A DNA stretch of 64,000 bases from Candidatus Atribacteria bacterium UBA6251 (lineage in GTDB: Bacteria; Atribacterota; Phoenicimicrobiia; Phoenicimicrobiales; Phoenicimicrobiaceae), in assembly GCA_002441285.1 (NCBI GenBank), contig DJVR01000007.1, positions 45,118 to 109,117 on the forward strand. The letters run 5' to 3'. The notes under the pieces were generated by a model. That model did not search any database. It was not told the origin of the DNA and saw nothing but the letters and a program-made list of their open reading frames with translations. Shown piece by piece: positions 13,718-22,280 of the stretch; position 1 is the first letter of the stretch, and every line of letters begins with the position of its first letter. A program made the position numbers and the translations under genes.

Positions 13718-14767
13718 TTACTCTCTCACCAGATTGGTCTTTAGTTTTTTCTTAATTGCCATTTTAATTTGGGGGAGAAGGTCTAAAGTAGCTTCTTTTC
13801 CCGCTTTTATACACTGATCAGCCTTCTCAAATTCAAAGAGTCCAATTTTTTCTATTTCATAAGGGATAATTACCACATCTGCCTGGCGCAATCTGAGAGA
13901 AGCAATCTCTTTTTCCATAATATCTAATGATTTACTAATTATTTCAATCAGATGGGGTCCTTCAAATTTTTTCTTCACCCCAGTGATTTTTTGGCTTAAT
14001 GAGGATACTTCTTTTTCTACTAAAGAGGCAATCTTCTTAGCATCTTTTAGTTTAGGCAGTTCTTTTAGACTTAATTTGATTAGATTAGTATTACTTACTT
14101 CATTAAGATATCCGGTTTCTTGATTTATCATCATAATTACTGGTTGAGGATTCTTTTTGCTTAAACTAACCGCAATAATAAAATCAGCTCCCATCTTTTT
14201 TACTACCTCTACTGGTACAGGATCTACTATACCTCCATCTACTAAATATCTTTCCTGATACTTTACTGGAGTAAAGATTCCCGGGATAGAAATACTAGCT
14301 CTTACTGCCTTTAATACACTACCTTGATTTAAGATAACTTTTGCCCCACTGGTTAAATCAGTAGAGATAGCAGCAAAAGGGATTTTTAAATCTGAGAAGT
14401 CCTTATTTTTTAGGGCGATTTTACTTAGCATTTCATCTATTCGTTTTCCACTAAATAAGCCAGAAAAAGGAAAAGTGGGATTAAAAATAATAAGAGGAGC
14501 TCGCTTTTTAACCTGCATGGCTATTCTTTTTATCTTTTTTATGGAAATACCACTAGCATATATTGCCCCAATGAGGGCACCTATACTGGTGCCCGCAATT
14601 ATATCAATAGGGATGTGATGAGCTTCTAAAGCTTCAATTACCCCAATGTGGGCCATGCCCCGAGCAGATCCACTACCCAGAGCTAAACCAAACTTTAATC
14701 CCTTTTTCTTACTTTGTTCTAATAAATATTCTAATTCCTGATCTGGTTTAAACTTAGGTATTTTCAT
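13718..14767 (-). CDS. Patatin-like phospholipase (RssA-like)
   Basis: Oxyanion-hole GSGSARG, nucleophile elbow GTSIGA (GxSxG) and catalytic DGG (LVDGGIVDPVP) occur in the canonical order. Confidence 0.85.
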   Translation of the reverse strand: MKIPKFKPDQELEYLLEQSKKKGLKFGLALGSGSARGMAHIGVIEALEAHHIPIDIIAGTSIGALIGAIYASGISIKKIKRIAMQVKKRAPLIIFNPTFPFSGLFSGKRIDEMLSKIALKNKDFSDLKIPFAAISTDLTSGAKVILNQGSVLKAVRASISIPGIFTPVKYQERYLVDGGIVDPVPVEVVKKMGADFIIAVSLSKKNPQPVIMMINQETGYLNEVSNTNLIKLSLKELPKLKDAKKIASLVEKEVSSLSQKITGVKKKFEGPHLIEIISKSLDIMEKEIASLRLRQADVVIIPYEIEKIGLFEFEKADQCIKAGKEATLDLLPQIKMAIKKKLKTNLVRE

Positions 14768-15152: not shown

Positions 15153-15624
15153 TTGGTTAGTAAGCGTAAATCCTGGTAGGAAAAATTAGAAAATAATAAG
15201 AATTTTCCTAAAACACTTAAATTTGAAACTAATTTTCCTTGTACTAAAGCCCTGATTAAAATGGGGGATAAAACCGGCGATAGTGTAGTTCTGGCTCCAC
15301 CTTTAGCGGTAAATGAAATAATGAAAGAAATACCGAAGTGGAGATTGATTACTCTGGGGGAAATTTGTCAAATACTGGCCAAAAAACATGGAACAAAATA
15401 TTGTTGTATTCTTACTTACTACTGGTATATTTGTAATGCTTGTAGCTCATGCTGCTGAAGAGACTAAGAATGGTATTCCTTACTGGAGAACTCTAAAAAA
15501 TAATTATGAACTAAATGAGAAATATCCTCAAGGAGTAGAAAAGCAGAAAGAATTACTGGAAAAAGAAGGGCACACTATAATTAAAAAAGGAAAAAAATAT
15601 TACGTGAAAGATTATTCGGGATAA
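15153..15624 (+). pseudogene. Decayed MGMT-family-like (TTGIF...PYWR) small protein gene
   Basis: One reading frame from the TTG at 15153 is interrupted by an in-frame TAG at 15177-15179 (KSW*EKLE). A 1-nt insertion near 15410 joins ORFs 15261-15458 and 15388-15624 (..KYCCILT|TTGIFVMLVAHAAEE..IPYWRTLK..). The family assignment is from memory of proteins annotated as MGMT family. Confidence 0.55.
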
Positions 15625-15831
15625 TTCGCTCTCTCTTCCTCTCTAAATTAGATACCCATAAAATATAGGGTGTAAACCTACCACATACAATAAAGATTTA
15701 GGATATGCCAATTATATTTTAAAAGGTTATGGCGAAATAATTACAAATTCTAAAAATTTTAAATTTAGATGCAATTAATTTAAAAAAGTGATAATATATT
15801 ACAATAAAAGATTAATGTTTTAGGAAGGATT

Positions 15832-15921
15832 ATGGAAGTCCAAAGTTTTTGGGAAAAATTTAAATTAATCAACAATTATTATTACTATTATTACTATTAT
15901 CTTCAGGAGGTAATTGCCTGA
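15832..15921 (+). CDS. Leader peptide, 29 aa, with eight consecutive Tyr codons (MEVQSFWEKFKLINNYYYYYYYYLQEVIA)
   Basis: ATG at 15832 with AGGAAGGA upstream. Tyr codons occupy 15877-15900 (TAT TAT TAC TAT TAT TAC TAT TAT). TGA stop at 15919-15921. The ORF tail overlaps RNA segment A of the attenuator (see regulatory feature). Too short for the ORF track. Confidence 0.6.
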   Translation: MEVQSFWEKFKLINNYYYYYYYYLQEVIA

Positions 15922-16005
15922 CGATAGTAGAATAATAGTGATAAAATCACTGGAATTCTAACCATGGGCAGTTACCTCCTGAGGGGTAATTACCCATGGT
16001 TTTTT
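15901..16005 (+). promoter_or_regulatory. Putative ribosome-mediated transcription attenuator (antiterminator/terminator alternative)
   Basis: Segment A (15901-15918, CTTCAGGAGGTAATTGCC) pairs with segment B (15967-15984, GGCAGTTACCTCCTGAGG) over 18 bp (16 Watson-Crick and 2 G-U, checked base by base). Segment B is the 5' arm plus loop of the terminator at 15962-15999. A small hairpin, AGTGA-TAAAA-TCACT at 15937-15951, may act as a pause element. Confidence 0.6.
15962..16005 (+). terminator. Intrinsic terminator of the leader/attenuator
   Basis: CCATGGGCAGTTACC (15962-15976) pairs with GGTAATTACCCATGG (15985-15999): 14 of 15 positions pair, with one C-A mismatch and one G-U. The loop is 8 nt and is followed by TTTTTTGTTTT. 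Confidence 0.7.
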
Positions 16006-16023
16006 GTTTTAGTATTTTAAAAA

Positions 16024-16061
16024 GCCAGGGGTAGAATAAAATATCGCCTCTGGCTTTTTTT
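16024..16061 (+). terminator. Second terminator-like hairpin between attenuator and ABC operon
   Basis: GCCAGGGG (16024-16031) pairs with CCTCTGGC (16047-16054) over 8 bp including one G-U. The loop is 15 nt, followed by T7 and preceded by A5, so it looks bidirectional. Confidence 0.45.
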
Positions 16062-16215
16062 CTTCTCTATATTTATAACTGCAAAAGGACAACCGGAGAA
16101 TGAAGACAAATAAAAACAATCAGGAGGTGAGAAAAGTATTAAATTATTAAATAATTGTTGTTTTTATTTTTTCTAAAACATTGATTTAAAAAATATTAAA
16201 AAGGAGATAAAGGTT

Positions 16216-17202
16216 ATGAAAAATTTAATTAAAGTTTTTAGTATTTGTTTTATGGTGATCATTCTTGGTTTAATGTTTATCTCAATAATATTAGCTGCTC
16301 CCTTAAAAATCGGTATTGTTCAGATTGTTGAGCATCCTGCTCTGGACGCAGCAAGAGATGGTTTTATTACTACCTTGACGGAAGCAGGATTCCGGGAAGG
16401 GCAGGAAGTCATTTATGATTTACAGAATGCCCAGGGTGATTTTAATAATGCTATCTCCATTGCTCAAAAGTTCAAAGATGATAAAGTAGATATGATTGTC
16501 GCGATTGCCACCCCCACTGCCCAGGCAGCATTACAAGTAAATAAGGAAATCCCTATCATTATTAATGCGGTAACTGATCCGGTAGCAGCGAATTTAGCGC
16601 AAAGCTGGGAAAGCTCTGGTAATAATGTTACTGGAATGAGTGATGCTGCTCCTAATGCCTTACAGATAAGATTAATTACCAGATTACTACCCCAAGTTAA
16701 GAATATTGGAACTATCTACAATGCAGGTGAAGTTAACTCTGTAGTCCAGATTGAGGAAGTTAAGAATACCTGTAAAGAATTAAATTTAAACCTGATTGAG
16801 GTTACAGTTAGCAATTCCAGTGATGTATTGATGGCAGCACAATCCTTGGTGGGAAGGGTAGAGGCAATATATATTGTTACTGATAATACAGCAGTATCTG
16901 CTATGGAATCTATTGTAAAGGTATGTAACCAGGAAAAGATTGCCTTGGTAGTTGCTGATCCCAGTTTGGTAGATAAAGGTGCTTTAGCGTCTTACGGAAT
17001 AGATTATTTTAATCTGGGTAAAAAATCTGGAGAGATGGCACTAAAAGTAATAAAAGGAACTAAACCTTCAGAAATTCCAATCCAAAAAATGGATAAAGAA
17101 GAGGACTTGCAATTTGTAATCAACTTAAATGCAGCTAAAATATTGAATCTTTCCCTTAGTGAGGAGATATTAAAACAAGCAGATAAAATAATTGAAGATT
17201 AA
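16216..17202 (+). CDS. ABC transporter substrate-binding protein, PF04392/COG2984 type (family labelled putative tryptophan/tyrosine transport system)
   Basis: AAGGAG upstream and a signal peptide (FSICFMVIILGLMFISIILAAP). The body, LKIGIVQIVEHPALDAARDGF...DMIVAIATPTAQAA, is typical of ABC_sub_bind proteins. It is followed by the matching permease and ATPase. Confidence 0.8.
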   Translation: MKNLIKVFSICFMVIILGLMFISIILAAPLKIGIVQIVEHPALDAARDGFITTLTEAGFREGQEVIYDLQNAQGDFNNAISIAQKFKDDKVDMIVAIATPTAQAALQVNKEIPIIINAVTDPVAANLAQSWESSGNNVTGMSDAAPNALQIRLITRLLPQVKNIGTIYNAGEVNSVVQIEEVKNTCKELNLNLIEVTVSNSSDVLMAAQSLVGRVEAIYIVTDNTAVSAMESIVKVCNQEKIALVVADPSLVDKGALASYGIDYFNLGKKSGEMALKVIKGTKPSEIPIQKMDKEEDLQFVINLNAAKILNLSLSEEILKQADKIIED

Positions 17203-17248: not shown

Positions 17249-18190
17249 ATGTCTATAAGTATCGCTCTCCATGCTTTAGAACAGGGTTTAATCTTTGGTA
17301 TTATGGTATTAGGAGTATTTCTTACCTATAAAATATTGGATTTTCCAGATCTTACTGTGGATGGAAGTTTTACTTTAGGAGCAGCGGTTACGGCTACTAT
17401 AATATTTTCTGGAGGAAGTCCCTTATGGGGTATCAGTTTAGCTATAATTAGTGGTTCTTTAGCTGGGCTGTTTACAGGTTTTCTTCATACCAAATTAAAA
17501 TTGAGTAATCTTTTATCCGGTATTTTGACTATGACCTTGCTCTATTCGGTAAACTTAAGAATTATGGGAAAACCGAATATACCTTTATTAGGTAAAGAGA
17601 CTATATTGGAGAAGATAGCAATTTACTTACCCCATATTTCGGGAAATTATCTGATCCCTTTCTTTTTTCTAATTTTAGTGATCATTATTAAATTTGCCCT
17701 GGATTTATTCTTATCCACTGAGATAGGTCTGGCTATTATTGCCACTGGTGATAATGAACAAATGATTAAAAGCTTAGGGGCAAATACGGACTTAACCAAG
17801 ATAATCGGGTTAAGTTTATCTAATGCTCTGGTAGCTCTTTCGGGGGCCTTTTTTGCTCAGTATTCTGGTTTTGCGGATGTCAATATGGGTTTAGGAACTA
17901 TTGTATCCGGATTAGCTTCGGTAATTATCGGAATTAGTATCATTCGTACTCCCACTATCTTTTGGAGGACTATTGCGGTAGTAATAGGTTCTTTATTATA
18001 TCGCTTAATTATGATTATAGCTTTACGTTATGGTTATAGGTTAGGTTTTAAACCGGGAGATTTAAAATTAATTTCTGCTGTATTGGTAATAGTGGCTTTA
18101 GCAGTACCATTGATCAAAAAGAGGATTGATTTTTTAACCAGTTTTAATTTAGGTAGAAAAGACTTACAAAATAACCATAAAGAGGTTTGA
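17249..18190 (+). CDS. ABC transporter permease (COG4120 type)
   Basis: 313-aa polytopic membrane protein immediately downstream of the binding protein, with GGGG upstream of its ATG. Confidence 0.8.
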   Translation: MSISIALHALEQGLIFGIMVLGVFLTYKILDFPDLTVDGSFTLGAAVTATIIFSGGSPLWGISLAIISGSLAGLFTGFLHTKLKLSNLLSGILTMTLLYSVNLRIMGKPNIPLLGKETILEKIAIYLPHISGNYLIPFFFLILVIIIKFALDLFLSTEIGLAIIATGDNEQMIKSLGANTDLTKIIGLSLSNALVALSGAFFAQYSGFADVNMGLGTIVSGLASVIIGISIIRTPTIFWRTIAVVIGSLLYRLIMIIALRYGYRLGFKPGDLKLISAVLVIVALAVPLIKKRIDFLTSFNLGRKDLQNNHKEV

Positions 18191-18194
18191 ATAG

Positions 18195-18992
18195 ATGTTA
18201 TTAATCAAATCATTAACTAAATATTTTTCTAAGAATACCCCTCATCAGGTATTGGCTTTGCACAATTTTAATTTAAAAGTGAAAAAAGGTGATTTTATTA
18301 CTATTATAGGTAGCAATGGTGCAGGCAAGTCCACTCTTTTAAATTTAATTGCCGGGACCTTGCTGCCAGATTATGGAGAAATAAGATTAGATGGAGAGAT
18401 GATTACCTACCAACCTGAATATAAAAGAGCTTACTGGATTGGAAGGGTCTTTCAAAATCCTCTTTTAGGAACTGCTCCCTATATGAGTATAGAAGAGAAT
18501 TTGGCCCTTTCCTTAAAAAGAGAGAAAAGAGGATTGCGTAAAGGTATTAATCAAGAGATGAGAGAATATTTTCGTCAAAGACTAAGCGAATTAGGTTTAG
18601 GTTTAGAAAAGGATCTTAATAAAAAAGCCGGTTTACTTTCCGGAGGGGAAAGACAGGCAATGACTATGTTAATGGCTACTATGTTTAAACCAAAGGTTTT
18701 ATTGTTAGATGAGCACACTGCAGCTTTAGATCCGGAAAGTAGTAAGAAAATTTTAAAGATAACCGAAGAATTAGTGGAAGAGAGAAAGAATGATTTGATT
18801 ACTCTGATGGTTACTCATAATATGAAGCAAGCGTTGGAAGTGGGGAATAGAACTATAATGATGGATAGGGGGCAAAATATTTTCGATATCCAGGGAGAGG
18901 AAAGAAATAAGATTGATGTAAATTTTCTACTCCAGCAATTTTCTAAATTAAGAAATCAGGAATATATTGAAGATAGATTAGTCCTTGATTAA
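18195..18992 (+). CDS. ABC transporter ATP-binding protein (COG1101 type)
   Basis: Walker A GSNGAGKST, ABC signature LSGGERQ and Walker B LLLDEHTAALD. It starts 4 nt after the permease stop. Confidence 0.9.
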   Translation: MLLIKSLTKYFSKNTPHQVLALHNFNLKVKKGDFITIIGSNGAGKSTLLNLIAGTLLPDYGEIRLDGEMITYQPEYKRAYWIGRVFQNPLLGTAPYMSIEENLALSLKREKRGLRKGINQEMREYFRQRLSELGLGLEKDLNKKAGLLSGGERQAMTMLMATMFKPKVLLLDEHTAALDPESSKKILKITEELVEERKNDLITLMVTHNMKQALEVGNRTIMMDRGQNIFDIQGEERNKIDVNFLLQQFSKLRNQEYIEDRLVLD

Positions 18993-19778: not shown

Positions 19779-20426
19779 GTGCTTCGGATGATGCGAGAGA
19801 TGGGTATCCAGGGTAGAATAAAACGCAGATATATCTCTACTACCCCTAGCCAACACAATAATAGAATATATCCCAACTTGCTTAAAGATAGAGTGGTAAC
19901 CGGGATCAATCAAGTCTGGTGTGCCGATATCACCTATATCCGCATACTTAATGGTTTTGTCTACCTGGCCGTCCTCATCGATGTCTATTCCCGAAAGATA
20001 GTAGGTTATGCTTCAGGTAAAACCCTATCTCCTAAACTTACGATTACTGCCTTAAAGATGGCTATCGCTACCAGAAATACTAACAATCTGATTCATCATT
20101 CTGATCAGGGTATCCCGTATAGCTGTAAAGATTACCTAAAAATATTAAAGGATAATGGTATCAGGATAAGGATGTCCGGAAAAGGCAATCCTTACGATAA
20201 TGCCTTTATCGAATCATTCATTAAAACCTTGAAACAGGAGGAGGTGTATCTATGGCAGGACAAAACCTTTGCTGAGGTTATAGCAAGGATTCCCTATTTT
20301 ATCGAAGACGTGTATAAGAAGAGGTTGCATTCCTCTTTAGGCTATCGGCCTCCAGAGGAATACAAGAGGTTATTGGCAGAAAATGCCTCTCAGGAATGCA
20401 TTATGGCTAAGACCATAAGTGTCTAG
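19779..20426 (+). pseudogene. IS3 orfB DDE transposase catalytic core, N-terminally truncated
   Basis: The DDE/rve core is present: WCADITY (D), HHSDQG (D) and YDNAFIESF (E). The usual HTH/linker region upstream of ...NHKRVLRMMREMGI is missing and cannot be joined in frame to orfA. Confidence 0.75.
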
Positions 20427-20890: not shown

Positions 20891-20924
20891 ACAGATGTCA
20901 AATAATTAAAAGGAGTTGATAAAA

Positions 20925-22280
20925 TTGAAACTACATATTAAAAATGTATTACCCATTATAGTAACTTTATTACTATTGTTCTTACTAACTGGTTGTCTGT
21001 CGGTAAAGACCTATACCGTAACCTTTGATTCCCAAGGTGGCAGTGCGGTAGATTCACAAACTGTGAACTACGGCGGGCTGGTAACCGAACCAACAGATCC
21101 CACGAAGGAAGGCTCCACCTTTGGCGGTTGGTATAAAGAACCAGAATGTACAAATGCCTGGGACTTTACCACTGATACGGTGATATCCGATGTGACCCTC
21201 TTTGCCAAATGGATGAATACGGTTACCGATATAATCACTTACAAGTTTGAGGCAGACAAAAATGGCGCTCTATCTTCTGATGTCATCGGTATTGTTGAAT
21301 CCGGTGACCATACTGTGGCCTTAACCGTTCCTTACGGGACTAATGTCGACGGACTTGTTGCCACCTTTACCTTATCAGATGGTGCTTCAGCTAAAGTAGG
21401 AACCACCGACCAGGTAAGTGGCACAACTGCCAATAACTTTAGCAGTGCGGTGACCTATATCATAACTGCCCAGGATACGGAAACCACCCAGAACTGGACG
21501 GTGACCGTAACAGTAGCAGCAGCAGCAACATACACGGTGACCTATAATGGCAATGGAAACACGGGTGGAAGTGTCCCGACTGATGGAGGCAACTACGAAG
21601 AGGGAGCAACGGTGACGGTACTTGCAAACACGGGTAGTCTGACCAGAATTAATGACGGGGGGACTTCATATCGCTTTACCGGCTGGAATACCCAAGCCGA
21701 TGGCAATGGTACCGCTCAAGCGGTAGGCTCTACCTTTATTATGGGTGCAGATAATGTGACGCTCTATGCCCAGTGGACACCTTATGCTCTTCGTGATACT
21801 GGTCCTGCTGGCGGTCTGATCTTCTATGACAAAGGTAGTTACTCTGATGGTTGGCGATATCTGGAAGCCGCTCCCAATGATCAGTCTACATCTCAAGCAT
21901 GGAGTAATATAACTAACGTTGCAGTAGGAGGAACTTATGCGGATATAGGAACAGGTCAGGCAAATACTAATGCAATAATAGGACAATCAGGACATATAGA
22001 AAGTGCAGCGCAGTTATGCGATGACCTGACAGTAGGCGACTATAGTGACTGGTTCTTGCCCTCGAGAGATGAATTGAATCTGATATATCAAAACCTGAAA
22101 TTCGCTGCTGGAGTCGGTGGTTTTGCTGATGACTACTATTGGAGTTCGTCTGAGAACAATGCTAACAACGCATGGAACCAGAATTTCAACAATGGCAACC
22201 AGAACAACAACAATAAGAACAACAACAAACGGGTTCGGGCTGTTCGGGGTTTTAAACAAGCCTGTATTTTGCCCGGATAA
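20925..22280 (+). CDS. DGR target-type surface lipoprotein: two InlB-B/Listeria-Bacteroides repeat modules plus a C-terminal DUF1566/Lcl-like (C-type-lectin-fold) domain
   Basis: TTG at 20925 lies 9 nt after AGGAG; the track start at 20916 abuts the RBS. Lipobox LLTGC. Repeat modules YTVTFDSQGG...FGGWY and YTVTYNGNGN...FTGWN. C-terminal DWFLPSRDEL...DDYYWSSSENNANNAWNQNFNNGNQNNNNKNNNKRVRAVRG. GC is about 53% in a hand-counted line (21301-21360). Confidence 0.8.
   Translation: MKLHIKNVLPIIVTLLLLFLLTGCLSVKTYTVTFDSQGGSAVDSQTVNYGGLVTEPTDPTKEGSTFGGWYKEPECTNAWDFTTDTVISDVTLFAKWMNTVTDIITYKFEADKNGALSSDVIGIVESGDHTVALTVPYGTNVDGLVATFTLSDGASAKVGTTDQVSGTTANNFSSAVTYIITAQDTETTQNWTVTVTVAAAATYTVTYNGNGNTGGSVPTDGGNYEEGATVTVLANTGSLTRINDGGTSYRFTGWNTQADGNGTAQAVGSTFIMGADNVTLYAQWTPYALRDTGPAGGLIFYDKGSYSDGWRYLEAAPNDQSTSQAWSNITNVAVGGTYADIGTGQANTNAIIGQSGHIESAAQLCDDLTVGDYSDWFLPSRDELNLIYQNLKFAAGVGGFADDYYWSSSENNANNAWNQNFNNGNQNNNNKNNNKRVRAVRGFKQACILPG
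22133..22255 (+). repeat. DGR variable-region position carrying a template-repeat-like (adenine/AAC-rich) sequence
   Basis: About 18 Asn codons (AAC/AAT) occupy the positions that are diversified in DUF1566-type VRs (22155-22229). They are followed by a GC-rich tract, CGGGTTCGGGCTGTTCGGGG (22230-22249), resembling an IMH-like end. I found no second copy in the window. Confidence 0.55.

Follow-up and report, generated by a model that had tools for sequence, protein, structure and literature searches.

A probable tyrosine-sensing leader-peptide attenuator with two predicted serial terminators ahead of an ABC importer operon of Atribacterota

The DNA analysed here, which we call the window, is a stretch of 64,000 nucleotides (nt) of a contig from Candidatus Atribacteria bacterium UBA6251. 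It carries on its forward strand the three genes of an ATP-binding cassette (ABC) importer, preceded by a leader that contains a short open reading frame (ORF) rich in tyrosine (Tyr) codons and a series of overlapping hairpins, and this leader is the subject of the present work. The first gene (16216-17202) encodes a substrate-binding protein of 328 amino acids (aa) that matches PF04392 (E = 4.9e-91), the second (17249-18190) a permease with a Pfam match to PF02653, and the third (18195-18992) an ABC ATPase with a Pfam match to PF00005. These matches bear out an earlier reading of the sequence letters, the original prediction, which had named a binding protein, a permease and an ATPase as the genes downstream and had proposed that the leader works as an attenuator keyed to tyrosine.

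The leader ORF (15832-15921, forward strand) has 29 codons and reads MEVQSFWEKFKLINNYYYYYYYYLQEVIA*, with the ATG at 15832 and the TGA at 15919-15921. It had been described with an AGGA-type motif upstream, and both parts of that description are present, the ATG being preceded by a Shine-Dalgarno-like AGGAAGG(A) (AGGAAGGA, 15823-15829). Codons 16-23 are the eight consecutive Tyr codons already recognized at 15877-15900; they are the putative sensor and also make up the 5' strand of a hairpin, P1. Tandem Repeats Finder confirmed that the run is a 9-nt tandem repeat, TATTATTAC x 2.7, with 100% matches. The promoter of the leader transcript (15769-15797, forward strand) was read from the sequence: a -35 element ATGCAA (15769-15774) and a -10 element TAATAT (15792-15797) are separated by a 17-nt spacer that contains the TG of an extended -10 at 15789-15790. 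A generic consensus scan gave chance-level promoters only and did not list this one, because its -35 element matches the consensus at only 4 of 6 positions.

Folding of the 193-nt leader gave a z-score of -6.7, and 0 of 200 shuffled sequences folded as well. Hairpin P1, the '1:2' element (15879-15944), pairs 15879-15907 with 15917-15944 over 27 base pairs (bp; -29.2 kcal/mol, z = -7.2). The apex of P1 is segment A (CUUCAGGAGGUAAUUGCC, 15901-15918), which spans the final six sense codons of the ORF and is also the 5' strand of an antiterminator. In the antiterminator, A:3, segment A pairs with segment 3 (15967-15984); the 18-bp duplex of 16 Watson-Crick and 2 G-U pairs that had been claimed for these two strands held when we recomputed it, the pairing was also listed as an inverted repeat, and 18 of 18 pairs formed in constrained folds. 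Segment 3 is the 5' arm of the predicted terminator T1 (15960-16010), a stem of 15960-15978 with 15983-16001 (-25.3 kcal/mol) followed by the U-tract TTTTTTGTTTT. The strong intrinsic terminator placed earlier at 15962-15999 is thus present, with a stem that runs from 15960 to 16001. The antiterminator and T1 are mutually exclusive, because both draw on the 5' arm of T1. A small hairpin (15928-15960, with 15928-15942 opposite 15946-15960) lies in the loop of the antiterminator in the predicted ON state.

Beyond T1 the leader contains two further elements. A second predicted terminator, T2 (16019-16062), begins 20 nt 3' of T1 and consists of a stem at 16019-16059, AAAAAGCCAGGGG...CCTCTGGCTTTTT, followed by a T-run (-17.6 to -19.5 kcal/mol). 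A relay helix, 4:5 (15992-16032), pairs 15992-16001, extendable into the U-tract, with 16023-16032, and its hairpin has a folding energy of -16.9 kcal/mol; one partner is the T1 3' arm plus the first part of the U-tract, and the other is an A-tract with the 5' arm of T2. Of the switch as it now stands, the original prediction had the ORF, A:3 and T1 right and had missed P1, T2, the relay and the promoter.

We refolded the leader with a ribosome footprint masking -18 to +13 nt around the A-site codon, at every codon from the second to the stop. The antiterminator was the minimum free energy (MFE) structure when the A site stood on Tyr codons 1-6 or on the one or two codons that precede the run, and these masked folds contained 13-18 of the 18 A:3 pairs and 0 of the 7 outer T1 pairs that were scored. 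At all remaining ribosome positions, and also without a ribosome, the footprint model formed P1 and T1. The model therefore reproduces the proposed logic, in which segment A is set free by an early stall in the Tyr run and is masked by a ribosome at the stop codon.

The nearest database relatives of the binding protein come from metagenome-assembled genomes of Atribacterota (Caldatribacteriota), with 73-95% identity, and the matches from named species fall in the class Phoenicimicrobiia; the host is thus a member of Atribacterota and not a Firmicute. A genome scan restricted to one genome per species yielded 10 loci with 60-75% identity, and a metagenome scan yielded a further 80 loci with 59-90% identity of the binding protein. 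All matches of both scans belong to Atribacterota. Every one of the 10 genome loci has a short upstream ORF with a Tyr run and then two hairpins with T-runs. Searching relatives for Tyr-rich ORFs and for covariation in the stems, a check that had been proposed with the original prediction, thus gave a Tyr-run leader at 80 of 90 loci (10/10 genome, 70/80 metagenome) and compensatory changes in both A:3 and T1. At six or seven of the 10 leaderless loci the available upstream DNA is too short. The run consists of 4-12 Tyr in the relatives, sometimes interrupted by N, H, C, D or F, and this range fits the earlier suggestion that slippage could change its length. Almost every related locus has a promoter of the form TTGACA/TTGCAA-N17-TATATT/TAAAAT/TAATAT, which lies 27-50 nt 5' of the ATG of its leader.

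The structures were compared across the leaders in alignment A2, which holds 61 sequences aligned with MAFFT. With the reservation that these leaders are related, so that counts of alignment cells overstate the number of independent events, T1 was paired in 85.9% of cells, with compensatory changes at columns 139/172 (UA 27, CG 17, UG 17) and 140/171, and the core of the antiterminator was paired in about 97%, with compensatory changes at columns 73/147 and 74/146. T2 was 85-97% paired, showed covariation and was kept in all clades. An equivalent of P1 that uses the last Tyr codons as its 5' strand was the MFE structure in 16 of 18 representatives drawn from all clades. When masking was applied at equilibrium to the 61 leaders, roughly two thirds of them switched to the antiterminator on the Tyr codons. 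We take this mixed result as weak evidence: it is supportive for the window clade and for the largest one, and the distal clade yields no information. An additional pairing, 3:5, of 15955-15967 with 16025-16037 (13 nt, 85%) was considered and rejected, because it needs the palindrome CCATGG of the window clade and is impossible in other clades; it is probably incidental.

These observations make it likely that the leader is a ribosome-mediated transcription attenuator that senses tyrosine. Transcription would start about 25-30 nt 5' of the leader ATG. When Tyr-tRNA is ample, the translating ribosome would cross the eight Tyr codons and arrive at the stop codon, and segment A would be masked by the ribosome or held in the apex of re-formed P1. 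T1 would then fold and transcription would end at about 16000-16010, and polymerases that leak past T1 would meet T2, which could fold because a closed T1 leaves its 5' arm without a competing partner. Under a shortage of Tyr-tRNA, the ribosome would stall on one of the first six or so Tyr codons, melting the 5' strand of P1 and leaving segment A exposed. Segment A would then capture the 5' arm of T1 (15967-15984) over 18 bp, and the freed 3' arm of T1 would pair with the nascent 5' arm of T2 to form the relay 4:5. With T1 and T2 both blocked in this way, the polymerase would continue into the transporter genes. If the leader were not translated at all, P1 and T1 would form and lead to termination.

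Several of our results count against this interpretation. Neither T1 nor T2 was called by a generic terminator scan, which found no terminators, and the promoter and the terminators were for this reason defined from folding and conservation. A ribosome that stalls on one of the last two or three Tyr codons would cover segment A, and such stalls are predicted not to be productive. Roughly one leader in three, for the most part from the distal clade, fails to switch when masked at equilibrium. Under the same masking, leaders of the window clade and of the largest clade form the relay, and no others do; those of the distal clade, which end in IPG* or AYRV*, always fold T2 and never have the relay in the MFE structure. 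In the window the relay hairpin (-16.9 kcal/mol) falls slightly short of T2 (-17.6 to -19.5 kcal/mol) in stability, and a kinetic argument is therefore required for the relay. The Shine-Dalgarno sequence of the leader is a soft feature: the window clade has a purine-rich one, but in several other clades it is weak or missing. The relatedness of the aligned leaders, pointed out above, belongs with these points.

The part played by T2 is the point on which readings diverge most. We see about an even chance that a single ribosome sensor governs two serial terminators through a chain of five helices, P1, A:3, T1, 4:5 and T2, and that this is an undescribed architecture with the first tyrosine-specific leader peptide, apparently confined to Atribacterota. 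If true, the OFF state would be the product of two termination efficiencies and the ON state would disable both terminators. It is also possible, but in our judgement rather doubtful, that the attenuator acts at T1 and that T2 is an independent back-up which contributes constant extra termination without any relay, the complementarity between T1 and T2 having come from duplication or concerted evolution. The order of stabilities in the window agrees with such a back-up, as T2 forms there at equilibrium even with A:3 enforced, and so does the distal clade, where equilibrium folding does not predict the relay. T1 and T2 resemble each other in their 5' arms (CCAYRGGY), as they would after a duplication, but the 3' arm of T2 is unlike that of T1, and T2 is therefore no plain copy. 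A constitutive terminator behind a regulated one would, moreover, cap induction.

The alignment also speaks against a back-up without a relay. The relay 4:5 was paired in 96.7% of cells over its 10 pairs, 3 of them compensatory, whereas controls in which the partner was slid by 1-3 columns were paired in 33-48%, and its compensatory conservation extends across three clades in which the motif itself has changed (ATG / ATA / ACA-ACG). Column 212, in the 5' arm of T2, can pair with the 3' arm of T1 in 60 of 61 leaders and is mismatched with its partner in T2 in 43 of 61, so that in those 43 it follows 4:5 and not T2; the relay, and not T2, seems to be what this base is retained for. Supplied with the alignment and no structure, RNAalifold returned a consensus of exactly two helices, the antiterminator (columns 67-79 with 140-153) and, at columns 169-177 with 207-215, the relay, and these are the two of the proposed ON state. 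Native 4:5 duplexes had a mean energy of -16.5 kcal/mol, compared with -13.5 kcal/mol for cross-clade chimeras; the corresponding values for 3:4 were -16.2 and -13.0 kcal/mol, and a 3:6 negative control gave -6.1 kcal/mol. The relay thus rests on covariation together with the kinetic argument that segment 5 would meet free segment 4 before segment 6 is transcribed, and on this basis we hold its action to be evenly poised between true and false.

A sensor of this kind requires that the leader be translated, and we infer translation, and stalling on the Tyr codons, from the pattern of the 61 distinct leaders that were used for coding tests. An ORF that starts with ATG and continues stop-free into the repeat exists in the Tyr frame in 61/61 leaders, in the Ile/Thr frame in 10/61 and in the Leu frame in 1/61, the first of these figures being biased because the leader search required an ATG ORF in the Tyr frame, a requirement that also counts against our interpretation. 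The codons of the run are TAT (312), TAC (181) and 21 single-nucleotide neighbours of these, with no stop codon among them. We find it quite improbable that the ORF is an accident in a UAY-rich stem and that the hairpins act independently of translation, be it as a switch operated by a protein, a tRNA (T-box-like) or a small molecule, or as constitutive terminators or a small RNA. Such a reading would draw on the fact that the Tyr run is a strand of a conserved stem, so that RNA structure also constrains its sequence, on the weak Shine-Dalgarno sequence in several clades, and on the other two frames of the run, which are likewise stop-free. It would have to account for an ATG-started ORF that all leaders possess in the Tyr frame only, despite 49 different N-terminal peptides among the 61, for a run that changes in length by whole codons, and for a stop codon that is always in or just 3' of segment A. 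It would also leave aside the codon-specific switching of the footprint model. Plain terminators would not call for a dedicated promoter directly 5' and transporter genes 3', and Rfam, searched at E <= 10 over 15500-16400 on both strands, gave no T-box and no riboswitch match. On balance the sequence pattern favours translation of the leader.

That the ORF instead makes a functional Tyr-rich small peptide, such as a modified-peptide precursor or a signal, is very improbable: the poly-Tyr core is strongly conserved and a homologous 28-aa ORF is annotated in one public gene call, but the N-terminus is unconserved, the number of Tyr ranges from 4 to 12, the C-terminus is conserved as nucleotides that pair with the terminator arm, G-U pairs and compensatory changes included, and the neighbours are always the ABC transporter genes, with no adjacent modification enzymes.

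If the leader senses tyrosine, the importer that it controls most likely takes up tyrosine, and the binding protein offers a separate line of evidence. It matches PF04392 and the solved binders of aromatic amino acids over its full length. Its matches in the PDB, the closest first, are 6HNI (the C. difficile lipoprotein CD0873, E = 4e-68), 3LKV (V. cholerae VC_1101, 2e-64) and 3LFT (S. pneumoniae SP1069, 1e-50), and these proteins bind Tyr, Phe and Trp, respectively (PMC6816091). In CD0873, Glu263 bonds the tyrosine hydroxyl and is replaced by Ala in VC_1101 and SP1069, and Tyr279 excludes Trp and is replaced by Gln in SP1069 (PMC6816091). HMMER alignments place Asp248 and Tyr264 of the window protein at the positions of Glu263 and Tyr279, and Asp and Tyr occupy both specificity positions in 85 of the 85 relatives long enough to check. 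In the window protein an acidic residue therefore occupies the site that in CD0873 (6HNI/6HNJ/6HNK) contacts the hydroxyl of tyrosine, and a Tyr occupies the site that keeps Trp out, as in CD0873 itself; this combination suggests tyrosine as the ligand. Unlike CD0873, its acidic residue is Asp, which is shorter than Glu; this is a point against, and since the residue is Asp and not Glu, specificity for Tyr is only suggested. The Tyr leader and the protein residues point to tyrosine independently of each other, and the expectation that the leader would provide independent evidence for the substrate agrees with the homology to the tyrosine-binding CD0873.

In the classical attenuators of E. coli, such as trpL, pheL and hisL, transcription terminates when translation is unhindered and also when it is absent, and the his leader also uses a chain of alternating hairpins. 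The leader described here resembles them in having a short ORF with the regulating codons and mutually exclusive 1:2, antiterminator and terminator hairpins, P1 being the counterpart of the 1:2 hairpin of the trp leader. It differs from them in its tyrosine codons, in its target, which is an importer and not a biosynthetic operon, and in its Atribacterota host. Here the strand that forms the antiterminator comes from the apex and 5' side of the 1:2 hairpin instead of from its 3' strand, and two predicted serial terminators are joined by a putative relay helix. The principle is familiar, and the novelty lies in the amino acid sensed, in the phylum, in the choice of an importer as target and in the proposed relay between two terminators; the conservation behind it is unusually clean.

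The leader would work like the leader families in Rfam and belongs to none of them: at E <= 10 the best of these were Thr_leader (19.1 bits) and Phe_leader (18.4 bits), with E of 0.7-3 and a gathering score of 55. The top Rfam matches were plant microRNA models, which we dismissed as they matched the long inverted repeat only. We know of no described regulatory RNA from Atribacterota.

Two known systems come close to the one proposed here. The aroR leader of C. glutamicum lies 5' of aroF (Neshat et al. 2014, as summarized in PMC11802643), contains Phe-Tyr-Phe and responds to Phe and not to Tyr supply. It is likewise a leader-peptide attenuator with a Tyr codon and a link to aromatic amino acids, but it has one Tyr codon and a biosynthetic target, whereas the present leaders have 4-12 Tyr codons and an importer. 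The trpXYZ transporter of Streptococcus suis and S. pneumoniae belongs to the same family as the window transporter (PF04392 binding protein, permease and ATPase) and is controlled by a T-box(Trp), whose RNA, about 460 nt long, directly binds tRNA-Trp that is uncharged (PMC9382623); T-box(Trp) control in some Firmicutes, which the original prediction had mentioned, is thus documented for S. suis trpXYZ. Transcription attenuation reports tRNA charging in trpXYZ and would do so in the window, where the predicted sensor is a ribosome translating Tyr codons.

The original prediction had also held that a Tyr-codon leader on this transporter family was undescribed, and we found no published precedent. 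Full-text search gave no published Tyr-run leader, no report of attenuation in Atribacterota and no attenuator in which tandem terminators share one sensor; literature coverage was partial and subscription journals lay largely outside it, so that these negatives are weak evidence. Should the attenuator operate as proposed, tyrosine would join the small set of amino acids that are sensed by leader-peptide attenuation, and this type of attenuation would extend to Atribacterota, a mostly uncultured subsurface phylum. The leader would be evidence from regulation, and not from protein homology, that tyrosine is what this branch of the "tryptophan/tyrosine" PF04392 family imports, and it would exemplify an exchange of sensors on one target, with a T-box as the sensor in Firmicutes and here a leader peptide. 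The relay, if it works, would be a simple natural way for an attenuator to gain dynamic range, and synthetic biology could make use of it. With 61 leaders aligned, there is sufficient material to seed a new RNA family.

A few of the related loci depart from the common pattern. Locus L083 (1-200) has a 5'-truncated, Phe-rich leader, ..SDYNFFFSFYFIPEVNAFRG*, that replaces the Tyr run, and changes in segment 2 match so that the hairpin is kept. We considered that this might be a Phe-keyed lineage and rejected the idea: the closest relatives, L091-L094 (72-75% identity), have an ordinary YYYYYY and the binding protein keeps Asp and Tyr, so L083 is an isolated variant and not a re-keyed family. At L061 (1290-1430) the promoter, leader, T1 and T2 are all missing and the stop of the upstream tatD joins the post-T2 region directly; either the attenuator was deleted naturally or the contig was misassembled. 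L023 (980-1500) has the orthologous operon with an unrelated upstream region, in which a divergent gene starts and there is no Tyr leader, and it keeps the GGGGGTGATTAAT box that is found 3' of T2 in the window clade. The public gene call mentioned above annotates the homologous 28-aa leader ORF at L094:899-985, which has no Pfam match; protein databases therefore occasionally list leader peptides of this type as small orphan proteins.

A conserved GGAGGTG box (16123-16129, forward strand) lies in the window 3' of T2 and 5' of the transporter genes. A GGAGG-like box is present 20-65 nt 3' of T2 in all clades (L001-L090), in the variants GGAGGTG, GAAGGGAGG and AGGAGATGAT. It stands about 70-110 nt 5' of the binding-protein gene's own Shine-Dalgarno sequence and is followed by mini-ORFs that are not conserved, including ATG-TAG start-stop pairs in L003-L005. 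The box could be a ribosome standby site or a stabilizer of the mRNA.

The gene upstream of the leader varies. In most relatives (L003, L005-L008, L010, L092-L094) a TatD-family hydrolase gene lies directly 5' of the leader promoter; the window instead has a 78-aa ORF without a Pfam match (15388-15624) and a divergent patatin-like gene (13718-14767). This difference implies either that the attenuator and transporter moved as a unit or that the neighbourhood was rearranged. Downstream, an rve-type integrase ORF (19779-20426) lies about 800 nt 3' of the ATPase gene and probably originates from an insertion sequence. In a survey of short ORFs across the window, no other intergenic one had a long run of an amino acid of the regulatory type. 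An ORF with seven Leu codons, MLLLLLLLRSPSSSGWFPYPGQL* (21460-21531, reverse strand), lies antisense inside the ORF 20916-22280, has no obvious terminator context and is probably a chance occurrence.

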